Assembly: GCA_022813865.1 (NCBI GenBank) | Contig: JALDZX010000107.1 | Location: 1-36,934 of the forward strand | Length of the DNA: 36,934 nt | Source: Xylographa opegraphella | Lineage: Eukaryota | Direction of reading: 5' to 3' | Position numbers and translations under genes: made by a program | Shown: positions 1-36,888 of the stretch, piece by piece | Layout: each line of letters begins with the position of its first letter | Numbering within the stretch: the first letter of the stretch is position 1 | The notes under the pieces: model-generated | Databases searched by the model: none | What the model was told of the DNA's origin: nothing | The model's input: only the letters and a program-made list of their open reading frames with translations

Positions 1-57
<57 letters not shown>
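1..57. repeat. (TAA)19 microsatellite, open at the window edge
   Basis: Perfect TAA tandem array. Confidence 0.97.
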
Positions 58-8900: not shown

Positions 8901-9868
8901 TCAAATCGAATAAAATTCAGTAATAATTATCAATATTTACTTATATTATTAATTATAATATATTTTTAATTTTCGTATAAAACGATTTTAATATAAACGT
9001 TAATTTATTACGAAATATACGTATAAAAAACGTAGTAAAATATAATATAAATAACTATTTTAGAACGACGGTTAAAACATTATTAAATAACGCAAAATTT
9101 ATCGCAAAATTATGGAAATCAAAAAAATCAAAAAAATCAAAAAAATCAAAAAAATCAAAAAAATCAAAAAAATCAAAAAATCAAAAAAATCAAAAAAATC
9201 AAAAAAATTAAAAAAATTAAAAAAATTAAAAAAATTAAAAAAATTAAAAAAATTAAAAAAATTAAAAAAAATGATAGAAAGATTTATTAATATAACTATT
9301 ATTAATTAGCGGTTCTATTTCTAAAGTTAATTTTTTTTGAATCGCGTAAGAATATAAATTTGCGGAGGAAATTATGATTTATAATAATATATTAATTATT
9401 ATATTTTTAAAATTTATTACGACAAAGTACTTTAATTTTTAAATTAATAGAAGAAATATTAAAAATAAATTTAAATTCGAATAAATAAATATATTTTTAA
9501 TAAATAACTAAAAAAGCATTATAAATTTAAATAAATTAAAGTGTATTGAATAAAACAACGGGATCGTAATATTGTCGACAAAATCTTCAATAATTATATA
9601 TAAAAAAAATGAAATAAACAAACTTTGCTATATTCTTTAACTATTTATATTTTATAATTTAAATCAATTGAAATATATAAAGCAAAAATAAAATAATTAT
9701 CGACATTTGAATTTTTAATAAAATTACGATATTAAGTATTTATTTAATACCTTTTTAAGCGAAAATACTCGCAGTTATAAATAACGTTATATATATTACT
9801 ATCGTTAATGTATATTCTTTTTCATTCTTAATTAATAAAGAAAATACACTGATATCGTTTAATAATTC
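5920..9868 (+). pseudogene. Element A gag-protease-RT (N-terminal part), RIP pseudogene
   Basis: About 8440-8495 reads YLDIKY, de-RIPping to CLDTGC (aspartic protease). 9540-9868 reads QRDRNIVDKIF...IIDI*FLNKIT...L*SEILAV...YITIVN...H*YRLII, the fungal Gypsy RT N-half. The gag start is not definable. Confidence 0.8.
9115..9270. repeat. 9-bp microsatellite (AAAAAATCA)n switching to (AAAAAATTA)n
   Basis: Directly visible tandem array inside element A. Confidence 0.95.
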
Positions 9869-10214
9869 TGTTACGATTCTGCTTCTCATTAATATAGTTC
9901 GATTGGGGATCTGAGTTGAATTCGTTAATAAATGAATAAAAAAGCACAGTAACAGGTCAATTATTTTCAAGAGTAATAATTTTCGTATAAAAAATTTGTA
10001 TTAAAATTTACTATTTTAAAATTATAATATAAGCTGAATACGCCTTTTAAAATAAAGGAAATCCTTTGCTTTATATAAAAAAATTATTTTAAAATGCCTC
10101 CCATGCCTCCCAAGGGTGGCTACTAAGGCAAAGGGGTTATGCCTTCCATGCCTTTTTAAGAAAACACAAAAGATAGCCGAGATAAGGTTCCCCCGACCCT
10201 TGTTTTGTACAACA
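9869..10214 (-). repeat. 3' LTR of element B (~346 bp)
   Basis: TGTTACGAT...TACAACA. The first ~208 bp align with 15745-15952. The right boundary is inferred from the AACA end and the 360-bp length of the related solo LTR. Confidence 0.8.
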
Positions 10215-10288
10215 TTGGTCAGAATTTTATCACTAATTTTCCCCGCCAGATTCTTGCTCCGAAAGAATTCCAGCAGTTTTGTTATATT

Positions 10289-10818
10289 ATGCTAAAAGAT
10301 AAATTAACCAGCGTTCATCGTCGAAAGGTTCAATCGTACAGTATTCGTGATAAAGGAAAGTTCACGATGCATTCTTGCGATCGCTGTATTAAGGAGTATT
10401 TTATTTATGCAATTTATTCGAAGTCAGAGTTTTACGCAAATTGCGTAACAATTAAAACTCGCTGTTATTTAATCATTATTGAGGCTGATCGTCGTAATTT
10501 AAAAAAACAAAAGAATAAAATAAAATATTAAATGGCCGAGGTGAAACAAACTCTGGGCCAGGTTTAACAAACCCTTGATCGTAAGAAGCGTCGACTTTTG
10601 GACATTAAAAACGAAGAACGAGAAATATTCCAACATAAAATGTTCAATATCGCAGCCCTAAAAAACAATAAACGTTAAAAATAAAAGTTTTTCCCAACGA
10701 TTTCTTCGAGTTTCTTCTCCTTTTTTTTCCTTTTAGAACTTTGGAAGCTTCTTTTTTTAAAATTTTTGCTTTGCTTGGTAATATTGTTAAAAAAATTTCC
10801 GATAATTCCCAAGGTTAA
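10289..10818 (+). pseudogene. Antisense accessory ORF of element B: Zn(II)2Cys6-like cluster + coiled coil + low-complexity tail (~176 aa before RIP)
   Basis: ATG at 10289. CDRC-x6-[Y]-x8-[Y]ANC-x6-C at 10376-10465, where both Y codons (TAT 10406, TAC 10433) are TpG>TpA products of Cys codons. In-frame TAA stops (10529, 10565) are explicable as CAA>TAA. Probable 1-nt frameshift near 10690; stop at 10816-10818. Confidence 0.8.
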
Positions 10819-13800
10819 TAAGTAGTTTTTTAGTACTATTTGATTTTAGGTAGTTTTTCTACTTGATTAAATGATTCTGACTTTGTTTATCCAGAATTTT
10901 CTTTACTTCGAATTTCTATTAATTTTTCTTATTATATTAAAAGATTATTTATAATAAAGTACTTACGTCTGCGAGTTCCAACAAGAATATATAAAATACT
11001 GGGTATACTCTTACATTTTTTGGCAAGTTAAGGAGGCAGTTGACTAACTCTTTGATTTATTTGATTAAGAATGTTTCGATTTTAATATGATTAAGCTTCT
11101 TGCTTCGATTTTTGCTGATTGTTAAATTCTTTGTAAAAAGGTACATTTTATCCCCCTTTTTTAGCTGAGGTCCATTCTTTGTATTTTTTCATTTTGCAGC
11201 AGTAATTCTGTCGTTGTTCTGCTCAATTCTTTTAAATAACGCTTCATGCGTAACTTTCAGATTTTTGATTAATATTATTGCTTTATTTGCATTAAATCCA
11301 GGCCTTTTGTTTTTAAATAATTATAAATGCTGTTTCATATTCGCGAAGAACGGCGACATTTTCGTTATTATAAATTATTTGTCGTTCGGCGCTAATTATT
11401 CTAAAGATAATAATAATGTTTATTTGTTTTATTTAAAGTTAATAAAGTGTCGTAAATATATTTTCAAACTTTGATTTTTTATATTTATTTATTTATTTAT
11501 AGATAATAAGCTGTTGATATTTTTAATTTAATTTTTAATTTAAATATAAAAGTTCTTTTAAAGTTCGATGTAAGTAACTTGTTTTTATTAAATGTTATTT
11601 CTGCTAAAAATTTATAATGTTTTATTAATCTGTTTGATAAAAGAAAATTAATTATTCAGCTATATATATTTCCTTGAAGGGTACAATACTAGAGTATTTG
11701 GTAAATTTATTTATAAATATTATTATCGAGTTATACTTTAGTTCTGTAGTTGAATCTTCTGACTTTGATAGTTTTATAATAAAGTTAATCGAAATTTATT
11801 TTTATGGTTTCTTTAGAATATTCGAATATTGAATATTTCTATATACTGTATGTTTTCTTAATTTATTTTTCTGATATAGTATGTATTTCTTGATATAATA
11901 TGTATTTCTTGATATATTCCTTTATATACTTTTTTATATTTAGGAATTCATAATTTCTTTTTATAAATTCTATTATTTTGGTAACTCCTGGATGGTTATT
12001 GATTGATTTATCGTAATAATGTTTAATTATTTCTTCTGCTAACAGTTCTGTTAAATCTTTTGTAATCGTTTTTATTTCAAAAGCTGCGATTTGTTTTATA
12101 GGAATAAAAGCCTCGTTGTTATCCTTTTATAGCAATGCTTCGTTTATTAGTTCTTTGTTTATAAGATTTTTTCTTTTACTAAATATATTTGCTTTTCTAT
12201 TGTCTTTGCCTGGTGTATATATGATTTTAAATTTATTTTATTCTAAAAGTTCTGCCCATCGTATTTATTTTTTATTAAGTATTTTTATTGTGGTAAAATT
12301 TAACAGATTTTTATGATTCGTATAAATTGTAAGTCTCGAGCAACTTTTTATATACTCTTTAATTTTAAATAAATATTATTATAACGAGTAGATTCTTATC
12401 GTAAATATTATAGTTTTATTTTATTTATAATATTTTTTTTAAATAATATGCAATAGGGTGCTATTTCCCATTTTGCATTTATAATAAACATATTTTTATA
12501 ACTAAGTTTGATACGTCTGTTTTTATTCTTGCAGGTTTTTTTTATTTAAAATATTATTAAAATTGGTAGTTCTGTACAAATTTTTTGAAAATATTAAAAG
12601 CTCGCTGTTGATTCGAATCCCATTTAAAGTTTATATTCTTATGTAATAAATTTGTTAGGGGTATCGCTGTCTTCGAGTAATTTTTAATAAAAATTCTGTT
12701 AAAGTTTGTGAATCCTAGGAATTTTAAAATATTTTTTGCTATTGTTGATTGAGGTTATTTAAATATAGCTTTAATTTTTTTTAAAATTTATTTTAATTCC
12801 GTTTCTACTGATTATGAATTTTAGAAAAATTATCTTGTTTTTACTAAATTTATATTTCTTTGATTTAAGAAGTAATTCTGTTTTTTTAAATATATAAATA
12901 TTTCTTGTACGTGCTGTATATATTTTTTTGCTAATTTCGAATAAATAAATATATCGTTTGAATAAATTATTATTGTTAAATTTAAATATATTTTTAATAC
13001 GTTGTTGATCAATATCTGATAAATAATTAATATATTAATTAATTCGAAAAATGTAATTTATTATTTATAGTATTTATATTTGCTTCGAAATGCAGTTTTT
13101 TATTCCTCGCCTTTTTTTATTTTAATTAGATTGTATACGCCTTTAAGGTTAAACTTGGTAAAAAATTTTACTTTATCGAATCTGTTTTGTATTTCGCTGA
13201 TTTTTGGTAAAGAATATCGATTTTACATAATAATATCGTTTAATTTTCGATAATTAATACAAAATCTTAAGTTTTTATTTTTCTTAAGTATAAATATTAC
13301 GAAATATTCTGTTAAGGATTTTAATTCGCGAATAAATCCTTTCTTTAAACTGTTCTCAATATATTTACGAAACTTTCGAAGTTCTTTTTTTAATATATTG
13401 TATATAAATTCAAATGTTGGCTCTTTTCCTGATTCGAGATTGATCTCGCGATTCCAAGACTGGTATTTAAATAAAGCGTTAAGCCTTTCCTTTTTCTAAA
13501 AGAACCATGTTCATACTTTATACTCTTTAGGGATATCAAGAGGTGCGTCGCTTCTCTTTAAACTTCGATTTAATTTGCTCTGCTAACCCTTGCTGGTGCG
13601 TATTGAGCCGAACCCTTGAGTAAAATCGTTTTTATTCGAAGATAAAATTTCCATAATCTTGATCGATTTTCGATTTTTTTTATTACCGTTCTCTGTTAAT
13701 GTATAAAAATATATATTAATAATGCGACTAATATATTTCTTGATAAGTACTCCTTTATTCTAATTTAGAAATACGTCGTGTTTGATCCATTAAAATCAAT

Positions 13801-15744: not shown

Positions 15745-15952
15745 TATTACGATCCTGCTTTTCACTAGTATAATTTAATTAGGGATTTAAATTGAATTCG
15801 TTAATGAATGAATAGGAAAATACAGTAACAGGTTAATTATTCTCCAAAAGTAATAATTTTCGTATAAAGGGTTTATATTGAAGCCTACTATCTTAAAATC
15901 ATAACATGAGTAGAACACGCCTTTTAAAATAAAGGAAATCCTTCGCTTTATA
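15745..15952 (-). repeat. Truncated 5' LTR of element B (R/U5 side only)
   Basis: Aligns with 9869-10076; the homology stops abruptly after gctttatat. Confidence 0.9.
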
Positions 15953-18470
15953 TTAAAGTATTGTAAAAATTATTAAAAAAATTTATAAAAAATTGTTTAA
16001 TTAACTAGGAATCACAGTATTGATATTTCAAGAATAAATAACGATTTTTCAAATTTGAAAATTATTTTTAAAGCCGTCGATATTAGGACATTCTATAGTC
16101 AAATAACTATTATATATTAATATAAATATATTATATAAAATTCAATACGACGCTTACGTATATTATATTATTGAATCAATATTTGATGACACGAATTTTT
16201 TGAAATAAAAAATAATTTAACTAATATAATTTTTATTTAAAAAATTACTAAATTAAAATATTAATACTAACCAACGAAACTCAAAATTTGGATTTAATAT
16301 ATATTATTAAAATATTACGAAATATAATAAAATTCGCAGAATTATCGATAATGATGTTTATTAATTAGTTAATTACGTATTAAATATTTAAACAAATAAA
16401 TTTTAATATTATATTTATTAAGAAATTAGATCTTAAACTAATACGATTTTTAAAGTATTTTCAACGATTTAAATTTAACGTACGATATAAATTTAAGTAA
16501 TTTAATAATATATGAAACGTACTCTTTAAGCTTTTACGCCTTCAAATAATTAACGAAATAAAACATCAATTTAATATATATATATTTTACGCGATTAAAT
16601 ATTTTAAAAAATTACGGCTTTTATTTATACAGTTAGACTAATATCGATATATTTAATATTTGTAATATATATAAACGATAACTTTAAAAAGAATTTAATA
16701 AAAAATATTCATAAAATCCGCGATGAATACGCGTGAAAAAAATAAAAACAGAAATAATTTTAAAAATAATAAAATTGAAATCTTTTATCGTATAATTAAA
16801 TATTTATTTTATTTTAACAATGTCGAATGAAGTTTTGGTTTTTATATTTATAAGTTTATAATCCAAAATATTTCTAAACTCGTATATAATAACCTGGGTT
16901 ATTAAGAATATAATCGCATATATTAAAAATAAATCAAAAGGTTGTATATCTTCAATATAATTAAAAAGCTATTTATATATATTCGATATTATTTATAATA
17001 TTAACTTTATTAATATCTCGATATAATTTTTATAATTAATTATTATTAATTTTAGCTTTTTCAAGACTTTTCCATATAATCATAATGTATTTTATATTAA
17101 TTTTGCCGAAATTGTCTTAGAATGAATTTAACTGCATAATAATAATAATATATAAATTCAGCAAAGCTTTTATAATTATCTTTAAAAAGAGCCATCAATA
17201 GAAAAATATGGATTATAATTTTATTAAATTAATTATATTTACTGTTGGAAATAGCGTTGCCTGGCAGAATGCCCTCTATGTTGCCTGCAGGCAATATAGA
17301 CGCTAACCTGCTTCTAGACTAGCGTANNNNNNNNNNNNNGAGCTTTCTTCCTTAAGAAGAAAGCAACCTTCTTACGCATCTTGACAGATAGTTCAATGAA
17401 GCACTCACTGGTTCCACCATACTGATTCCACCCATTCATTTCAACTTTTACTTTAATAAAAAAATACTTAAAGCTATTTTTTTAATAAAAATTAAAAATT
17501 AATAAAAAAATTGTAGAAGAAAATTCCGAATATTTCAAAATAATTTTATAGTATATTTTATTATTTACAAACGAATAATTAATCTAAACGTTTGAATTAA
17601 ACCGTATAAATTGCACTGTAATATTATATAAAGACATTAAAAAATATATTTAATTAATTCAATATTTTATCGCGATTTAGTTATACTTTTTATAATTTCA
17701 TTAACATTATAGTTATTAATAAGTCTTTATATAAATTTTTTATACTTTTAAAACGAGGGAATCATTAAATTTTCTGAAATTCGAAAATACAAAATTAATA
17801 AAAATAAAAATTATAGCATCGATTAAGCTTTTTATATTTATTTATTTAATTACAATAAAAAACGTCGTTATAATAATACGAATACTTGATATTAATAATT
17901 TACGTATAGCGAACGTTAATTAATGTCGATTTATTTATATTAATACGAAGAACGCAATCATATTTATAAAAATAAAAATAAAAATATATTAAAAATTCAA
18001 AATTCAAAATAGAAATCGATTTTTAAAAAAAAAACTTATAATAAATTTGAAATGGTATAAAAAAATATAACGTATTAAATATTAAATAACGAATAGTTTA
18101 TCAATAATTTATTAAATCGCTTAAGAATTTTAAACGCATCGATCGTTTAACGTATACATTAAAACTTTCGAAAAATATAAAAATATATTCGATAGTTTTA
18201 ATGTTTTACTTAGAATTAATAATATTTTTAACAGAATTAATATAATAAAATAAAAATTGATTGATAATTATTCGTACTAATACAAAATCAATTAAAATAT
18301 AAATCGATCGATTTTTAAAACGACGAAAGGTAAAAGAATTTACAAAAATTTATTAATTATTTTATACGCTAAAAAAAATACGCTAAAAATACGATAATTA
18401 ATATAATTTTAAAACCCTCGACAACGTAAAAAATTTAAGTAATAATTTCAAAGAAGGCAATAAAGAATAC
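15953..18470 (+). pseudogene. Element A RNase H-integrase-chromodomain, RIP pseudogene
   Basis: About 16420-16535 KLDLKLIRFLKYFQRFKFNVRYKFK*FN..NVLFKL (RNase H end). About 16885 YNNLGY*EY (HDxxGHxG). About 17060 RLFHIIIMYFILILP (PFHTITMDFILxLP). About 18300-18460 IDRFLKRR...IR*KKY...LDN (chromodomain). Confidence 0.85.
17243..17446. mobile_element. Un-RIPped Copia-like LTR (or collapsed full element) inserted in element A integrase
   Basis: TGTTGGAAAT...ATTTCAACT with perfect 5-bp TSD TTTAC (17238-17242, 17447-17451). GC-rich. Contains a 13-N assembly gap at 17327-17339. Confidence 0.85.
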
Positions 18471-21599: not shown

Positions 21600-21790
21600 G
21601 AAAACAATAATAAAACAAAAATAAAACAATAATGAAATAATAAAAAAATAATAATAAAATAATAATAAAATAACAATAAAATAATTACAAAATAATAATA
21701 ATAATAAAATCATAATAAAATCATAATAAAATCATAATAAAATCATAATAAAATCATAATAAAATTATAATAAATCATAATAAAATCATC
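21600..21790. repeat. Low-complexity AAT tract and 11-bp (CATAATAAAAT)n array
   Basis: Directly visible; about 8 units at 21700-21790. Confidence 0.9.
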
Positions 21791-30700: not shown

Positions 30701-30774
30701 TTTAATTCGCGTAAACGTTTATTTTTCTTGGGAAAGAAGAAATATTTTCTTTATTATTAATTTTTATATTTTAT

Positions 30775-30958
30775 GTTTCGTACGTACGATTCTGGCTAAG
30801 ATACCTGGGTCGATTTCGTACGCACGATTTTGACTATAATATTTCGATTGTCTGAGTGATTTTTATAATTTACGTTTCGTACGCACGATTTTGACTAAAA
30901 TACCTGGGCCGATCTCGTACGTACGACCTTGATTATAATATTTCGATTGTTTGAAATG
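30775..30958. repeat. 99-bp-period tandem duplication containing four tcgtacg[t/c]acga motifs, downstream of element C pol
   Basis: tacctggg at 30802 and 30901; each unit carries two cgtacg palindromic cores. Confidence 0.9.
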
Positions 30959-35984: not shown

Positions 35985-36071
35985 AAAAATTTTCAAAAAT
36001 TTCAAAAATTTCAAAAATTTCAAAAATTTCAAAAATTTCAAAAATTTCAAAAATTTCAAAAATTTCAAAAA
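35985..36071. repeat. (AAAATTTCA)n 9-bp microsatellite abutting the assembly gap
   Basis: Directly visible. Confidence 0.95.
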
Positions 36072-36155
36072 NNNNNNNNNNNNNNNNNNNNNNNNNNNNN
36101 NNNNNNNNNNNNNNNNNNNNNNNNNNNNNNNNNNNNNNNNNNNNNNNNNNNNNNN
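36072..36155. other. Assembly gap (84 N)
   Basis: Run of n. Confidence 0.99.
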
Positions 36156-36375
36156 AAAGAAAATAAAGAAAATAAAGAAAATAAAGAAAATAAAGAAAAT
36201 AAAGAAAATAAAGAAAATAGAGAAAATAAAGGAAATAAAGAAAATAAAGAAAATGAAGAAAATAAAGAAAATAAAGGAAATAAAGAAAATGAAGAAAATG
36301 AAGAAAATAAAGAAAATGAAGAAAATAAAGAAAATAAAGAAAATAAAGAAAATGAAGAAAATAAAGAAAATAAAT
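36156..36375. repeat. (AAAGAAAAT)n 9-bp microsatellite with G variants
   Basis: Directly visible. Confidence 0.95.
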
Positions 36376-36888
36376 AAAATAGCGAAAATTATATATAAAT
36401 CGTAATTTAATAAAATGCCGGGGCTATTCGATATTTTTGATAAAAGATTTTAAATTGATATTTTGACTTCAAAATTATTTTTATTTCATTTATTTAACGT
36501 ATATATTAAAATAGTATATTATTAATTTCGTTATAAAAAACCAATATTATAACCCTTCGTAAATTGAGGAAAAGAAATTATATAAATTTATCGTTTTTTT
36601 AATATAATGAAAAAGGCTTTAAAATTAATTATCGTAATAAAAATTAACGATTTAACAAAAAAATATTTTTATTTTTAACTTATGAATTAAAGGCGAGACG
36701 CGAGCGATTTATTAAAATGAGGCTAAATTACTTTATAAAATCAATCTATACAATATAAAGTAAAAATAACGATTACACAGCGACGATATTAAATTTGAAT
36801 ATTAATAGCGTTTTTAATAACGTATTTTATTAACGACTGCTATATAATTTGCGTAAATAAAATTTTAAAAGATTATATTGAAACTAAT

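Follow-up and report, generated by a model that had tools for sequence, protein, structure and literature searches.

Inside a Ty3/Gypsy retrotransposon that we call element B, on the strand opposite to gag-pol, lies an additional gene (aORF) whose existence, place between pol and the 3′ LTR, conservation as protein, six-cysteine pattern and long helix are shown by our analysis of the window, by which we mean the whole 36,934-nucleotide stretch. Judged from comparison with its relatives, aORF is a real, recurring antisense accessory gene of a Gypsy element; what the window contains is a pseudogene that GC-to-AT mutation has ruined and that no longer encodes anything. We think it probable that the feature is a mutation-killed accessory gene of an ascomycete Ty3/Gypsy lineage, the intact product of which would form dimers, hold zinc and bind nucleic acid.

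Element B lies on the minus strand between two LTRs, identified from a match of 81% identity between positions 9871–10094 and 15747–15968. Both LTRs terminate in ...TCGTAACA, and 9869/9871 is the end point of many paralogous contigs, in keeping with the bound of the 3′ LTR. Because Pfam matches to RT_RNaseH_2, RT_RNaseH (E 6.6e-9, stops read as X) and Integrase_H2C2 were found on the minus strand between these LTRs, we assign the element to Ty3/Gypsy; no Chromo, RVT_1 or gag domain was matched by Pfam at E ≤ 1 in its decayed minus strand. The stretch FEVKKILDK...QAKQKF (10912–10760) has what we take to be a likeness to the chromodomain consensus. The features of element B and of aORF, with the basis of each call in brackets, are as follows.

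9869–10083, minus strand: 3′ LTR of element B, ~215 bp, ending ...TCGTAACA (alignment and end sequences).
10084–10111, minus strand: polypurine-like tract (GGGAGGCATGGGAGG...), lying next to the 3′ LTR on its upstream side (position and composition only).
10084–10288, no strand assigned: spacer of 205 bp from the 3′ LTR to the ATG of aORF, a candidate site for an antisense promoter (GC content).
10289–10825, plus strand: aORF in its present pseudogene state, 178 codons closed by TAG and interrupted by TAA at 10529, 10565, 10676 and 10682 (homologues and stop counts).
10376–10465, plus strand: six-Cys motif C-x2-C-x6-C-x8-C-x2-C-x6-C, with its third and fourth positions now Tyr (sequence and alignment).
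10481–10678, plus strand: counterpart of the long helix in the relative P0001 (AF2 and alignment).
10760–10912, minus strand: chromodomain-like C-terminal stretch of pol (likeness by eye only).
11890–12042, minus strand: integrase zinc-binding domain, Integrase_H2C2 (Pfam PF17921, E 4e-8).
12350–12622, minus strand: RT-linked RNase H, RT_RNaseH_2 (Pfam PF17919, E 3e-13).
15745–15958, minus strand: 5′ LTR of element B (81% match to the 3′ LTR, alignment and end sequences).

Element B is broken up by a stop about once in every few dozen codons, and as a whole it is dead in this window. A permissive self-BLAST of the entire element returned only AT-rich alignments of ~52% identity, which we dismissed as noise. 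Among the organism's contigs at no less than 80% likeness, the LTR (9850–10100) recurs in 25–33 and the internal parts in 1–7, an excess that points to numerous solo LTRs or to interiors that have diverged strongly.

aORF is a plus-strand frame that opens with an ATG at 10289 and closes with a TAG at 10823–10825. This TAG is one of five stops in its frame, the four internal ones all being TAA, as compared with 9–16 stops in the other five frames over 10289–10825 (9 in each minus-strand frame). Five or fewer stops were obtained in 16 of 5000 mononucleotide shuffles of aORF, which had a mean of 14.1 (s.d. 3.5). Over its last 66 nucleotides (10760–10825), the codons of aORF are exact reverse complements of pol codons. 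The original prediction, made from the sequence of the window, had described an ORF at 10289–10818 that runs opposite to gag-pol between the 3′ LTR and the chromodomain, which its tail overlaps in antisense. Its start was correct, and its end fell 7 bases before that of the true stop; the LTR bounds and the minus-strand pol domains agree with its placement, and the 66-nucleotide overlap does lie opposite the chromodomain-like stretch, recognized by eye only.

A phmmer search of 1.84 billion representative proteins with the open 123-residue stretch of aORF identified two relatives at E ≤ 0.001, both of which are automatic predictions without names: P0001, an intact protein of 177 residues encoded on an 8706-bp contig (E 2.4e-9), and P0002, which has 166 residues and is encoded on a 361,890-bp contig (E 1.5e-5). 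In tblastn searches, residues 1–131 of P0001 mapped to 10289–10660 in the aORF frame only (E 4e-20), with the initiating Met on the ATG at 10289, and P0002 matched the window with an E value of 5e-15; neither protein had any other match anywhere in the window. This alignment of an intact relative, beginning at its Met, bears out the earlier proposal of an extra antisense gene inside a Gypsy element. The aORF of the window is identical to P0001 or P0002 in 58 of 130 aligned columns. Beyond its last two TAA codons, the aORF frame (…SSSFFSFFFLLEL…FPIIPKVNK) resembles the tail of P0002 (…SSFKFFSFFFFEDLEL…IPKEIPGNF), and the two terminate within 1–2 residues of each other; we therefore conclude that the whole frame of 10289–10825 corresponds to a protein of ~170 residues.

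A further copy was found in the same genome on a 1987-bp contig, in which an LTR, the aORF region and the end of pol are collinear with element B in patchy pieces of at least 80% likeness and are spaced by 714 bp, as compared with 734 bp in the window. The genome therefore holds at least one additional copy with the same layout. Word-indexed homologue searches with the window ORF, with P0001 and with a profile (E ≤ 10) returned nothing beyond P0001 and P0002, and no relative emerged when metagenome and viral contigs were scanned with protein patterns or when the metagenome contigs were scanned with a degenerate DNA motif. The nearest ESM Atlas clusters to P0001 consist of unnamed Ascomycota 'hypothetical proteins' (122, 62 and 210 members, scores 0.94–0.95), and these leads raise the prospect that there may be hundreds of unnamed ascomycete proteins of the same kind. 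Conservation as protein across copies and relatives was thus seen in two relatives and one collinear contig. The window, the collinear contig and the tails of P0001 and P0002, which align with the part that overlaps pol, together suggest that the family has a constant place inside Gypsy elements.

The six-Cys motif of the window retains Cys codons at 10376, 10385, 10442 and 10463 and has Tyr codons at the third position (TAT, 10406–10408) and the fourth (TAC, 10433–10435). That both had been Cys was proposed on the basis of TpA-to-TpG reversions placed at 10406 and 10433, each of which is the T of its TpA, with the A at 10407 or 10434, and the intact homologue P0001 indeed has Cys at both positions. 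The motif segment of P0001 reads CDRCIEKGLVCQVSADSDYCASCMESKSSC, and the stretch ...MHPCDRCIEKGLVCQVSADSDYCASCMESKSSC... carries all six cysteines of the protein, all within one pattern, C30-x2-C33-x6-C40-x8-C49-x2-C52-x6-C59. The Zn(II)2Cys6 pattern is CX2CX6CX5-12CX2CX6-8C, and the spacing in P0001 fits it. Tyr occupies four of the six Cys columns in P0002, two in the window copy and none in P0001, which is the outcome expected from G-to-A change at TpG; P0002 thus appears to be mutated in the same manner as the window copy. Among the matches listed, no paralogous contig has a G at 10407 or 10434. Over 10396–10410, again among the matches listed, two of ~3 paralogous contigs have a T>C change at 10408 with 10407 unchanged, and in these two, which themselves bear G>A changes, the third Cys position also appears to be Tyr.

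Nearly all of the window is AT-rich, at 16–23% GC per kb. Because the classical RIP indices are unremarkable in the window (TpA/ApT = 0.84–1.08), we argue for RIP-like mutation from the direction of the changes. With the least-mutated LTR copy, at ~515–735, as the starting point, C>T/G>A changes number 39 and 35 in the two LTRs of element B, as compared with 7 and 6 changes in the opposite sense and 16 and 17 of other kinds, and among paralogous contigs (one DNA run of the same organism) transitions account for 205 of the 245 variant places. Pfam detected nothing on the aORF of the window or on the three plus-strand read-through frames, and the stops and Tyr codons fit GC-to-AT change, in agreement with the idea that mutation hides the gene from domain scans.

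Base composition varies along the window in several other ways. The spacer (10084–10288) is 41.5% GC, as compared with 23–27% for the LTRs; taken together, the spacer and aORF region (10084–10825) has 32–41% GC, versus ~22% in the rest of element B, and the aORF region has 25 CpG in 537 bp. A third LTR copy at ~515–735 on the plus strand is little mutated (41% GC) and is preceded by a G-rich stretch (361–514, 61% GC) with a likeness to the polypurine side of element B. Together they are flanked on both sides by AATACGCGCAG-type tandem repeats, and 361–735 may be a short 3′ fragment spared by GC-to-AT mutation. Repeats elsewhere include (TAA)n at the start of the window (1–57), short-period arrays of AAATCAAAA (x17) and AAAATAATAAT (x17.5) within AT-rich sequence at 9116–9270 and 21601–21786, a 99-bp unit present twice with 86% match at 30760–30954, which has CG-rich words (TACGCACGA) unlike its AT-rich surroundings, and, at 35986–36389, 9-bp microsatellite arrays of AAAAATTTC (x9.6) and AAAGAAAAT (x26) that flank a run of N marking an assembly gap.

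The Cys motif is followed by a long helix. In two AF2 runs, residues 65–142 of P0001 formed a single helix with a pLDDT of 82–97, in line with the helical stretch that the original prediction had placed after the Cys motif. The first half of this helix is very basic and the second half acidic, and within the equivalent region of the window lies a conserved MFNIxAL segment (10640–10660). We predicted a homodimer from two copies of P0001 residues 20–145 with four Zn included, which gave an ipSAE of 0.48 (runs of 0.48, 0.44 and 0.51), as compared with a best value of 0.00 in three controls. The mark that we apply to ipSAE was reached by 21 of 30 solved one-chain pairs and 0 of 23 solved single chains (17 of 29 and 0 of 30 for eukaryotes), a calibration outside of which this job falls, in that it includes ligands and concerns a predicted chain of a eukaryotic protein, and such predictions readily place long helices side by side. 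The runs shared at least 88% of their contacts, with a partner pLDDT of at least 77. Contacts such as 78–110, 71–117 and 89–99 describe an antiparallel register with 3–4 spacing over ~nine heptads, an arrangement that would leave one Cys module at each end of a long rod, and residues 42–63 of each Cys module touch residues 122–131 (the MFNIxAL segment) of the other chain. P0001 is thus predicted to pair as an antiparallel homodimer through the long helix.

The product had originally been identified as a Gal4-type Zn2Cys6 regulator. On this reading it would be a true member of the family that binds paired CGG half-sites as a parallel coiled-coil dimer; its transcription would start in the 3′ LTR and run in reverse, and it would act back on the LTR or on promoters of the host. 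P0001 does share with Gal4-type Zn(II)2Cys6 proteins (PF00172) a fungal host, a helix after the motif and a Cys spacing that fits the pattern exactly; its CDRC agrees with the beginning of the Pfam consensus, and it has an acidic/hydrophobic tail that we take to be like an activation region. The match of P0001 to Zn_clus is weak, however: it scores 11.5 bits (E 0.33), where the cut-off is 21, and it spans only residues 27–44, which cover one half of the motif and fall on the latter half of the model. Neither P0002 nor the window ORF had a Zn_clus match in Pfam. No solved Zn2Cys6 chain was found at E ≤ 10 in the PDB with either a profile or a single sequence, both of which returned only weak coiled-coil or unrelated matches. 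The Cys region had a pLDDT of 44–63 in both AF2 models, the first of which begins a short helix at each CxxC with low confidence, and a Foldseek search of the PDB with this model, unconfident in its Cys region, gave nothing at E ≤ 0.001. Among named ESM Atlas clusters, the best score was 0.88, with no common Pfam family and no Zn_clus cluster.

Sequence and predicted architecture outside of the cysteines also appear to differ from those of Gal4. Gal4-type domains have basic DNA-contacting residues at fixed positions between the second and third Cys (Gal4, PROSITE). In the three aORF sequences this interval reads IEKGLV, IKNKLF and IKEYFI, with 1–2 Lys each and at no fixed positions, and the basic residues that we would expect there do not appear to be conserved. 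CGG/CCG triplets are absent from three LTR copies including the least mutated, a count of little weight given that two of the copies are heavily mutated. The Gal4 dimerization element is a short parallel coiled coil, whereas the P0001 helix extends for ~75 residues and is predicted to pair antiparallel over ~9 heptads with the Cys modules at opposite ends; as far as prediction goes, P0001 does not have the short parallel coil, and the Gal4-like dimerizing coil originally proposed is not what is predicted. The product would also be only ~177 residues long and is encoded by a retrotransposon. Of the Gal4-type identity, then, the Cys spacing stood up and the Pfam score did not, with no sequence match in the PDB and an unconfident fold of the Cys region. 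We describe the motif as zinc-cluster-like, with Gal4-type membership a possibility to which the Cys spacing points, and regard the full Gal4-type transcription-factor reading, with which the predicted antiparallel pairing is partly at odds, as distinctly unlikely. Also unlikely in our estimation is that an ascomycete chromovirus lineage carries its own host-derived Zn2Cys6 factor, rebuilt as an antiparallel dimer, and uses it to control LTR or host promoters by means of an antisense transcript.

Two other explanations dispense with a standing gene. The frame might be non-functional, staying open in the relatives only because constraint falls on the opposite strand or on cis-acting sequence near the polypurine tract, with gene callers simply having predicted it. 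The nameless, automatic nature of P0001 and P0002 would suit this explanation, as would the at least 66 nucleotides at the end of aORF that overlap pol codon against codon. It is made very unlikely by the ~470 of 537 nucleotides that lie outside recognizable pol domains, by the confinement of the tblastn similarity to the aORF frame, by the 9 stops in each minus-strand frame, and by the regular six-Cys pattern and heptad-regular helix of ~75 residues, with pLDDT above 90, in P0001. Alternatively, a host gene or fragment might have been captured by, or come to lie beside, one insertion without belonging to the element family in any lasting way. The GC content of the region (32–41%, against ~22% in the rest of the element) is consistent with capture, and so is the number of contigs at no less than 80% likeness, which is 1–5 over the aORF region and 25–33 over the LTR. 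However, aORF is enclosed by the two LTRs, with the polypurine tract on one side and pol, which it overlaps, on the other; the genome has another contig that is collinear across the region; and the homologues share the pol-overlapping tail. Together these points make capture highly improbable.

The closest known parallel to aORF is brtn, which Zhao et al. reportedly described in 2011 (Virology 417:248) as an additional antisense gene of Boty-like Gypsy retrotransposons. The LTRs of Boty are longer than the ~215-bp LTRs of element B, and we liken the two genes by position, not by sequence. brtn is an extra antisense gene in the interval between pol and the 3′ LTR of Boty-like Gypsy elements of Botrytis cinerea and Sclerotinia, and the antisense extra ORFs that plant elements and Boty have in this interval are of unknown function (PMC7264820, PMC8365987, PMC4227169). 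Genes brtn and aORF share their antisense orientation, their location between pol and the 3′ LTR and their residence in an ascomycete Gypsy element with a pol chromodomain, which in the case of element B is a chromodomain-like stretch recognized by eye. The ORFs of the plant elements Grande1, RIRE2 and Retand have the same position and orientation and are conserved within families, some with a coiled coil (PMC7264820, PMC4408406), and the eORFs of plant Tat elements have a PMD and, in some, a coiled coil (PMC4408406). They differ from aORF in that their hosts are plants, their lineages are mostly not chromoviruses, and their PMD and Tr28 domains are unrelated to the Cys cluster. Beyond the citations of brtn, the literature that we searched, as far as it was accessible, described no fungal LTR element with a zinc-cluster ORF or an antisense ORF.

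We return to the reading that we favor, an accessory gene of the element itself. In the orientation opposite to gag-pol, the gene occupies the interval from the polypurine tract to the pol end, with its last codons opposite the C terminus of pol, and would be transcribed from a putative antisense promoter for which the LTR and the spacer are candidate sites. Its intact product, presumably of ~177 residues as in P0001, would consist of a basic N terminus, six Cys with the spacing of a zinc cluster, a helix of ~75 residues and a short acidic/hydrophobic tail. The six Cys would hold zinc, and two chains would pair antiparallel through the long helix, with each Cys module predicted to pack on the MFNIxAL end of its partner. 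In the nucleus, such a dimer might bind nucleic acid and serve the element by tuning its transcription or its silencing.

To our knowledge, extra antisense genes of LTR retrotransposons are an established class in which no member has an assigned function, and brtn is the only named fungal one. The aORF protein is a new type within this class and, with a metal-binding-type motif and a confident helix predicted to dimerize but no Pfam family, provides a testable handle on it. If zinc and nucleic-acid binding hold true, the protein would give a fungal retrotransposon accessory gene its first functional assignment and would also be an example of how genes of this kind, once hit by GC-to-AT mutation, escape routine annotation. 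If the host-derived zinc-cluster reading proved true, it would be a fungal transcription factor borne by a retrotransposon.
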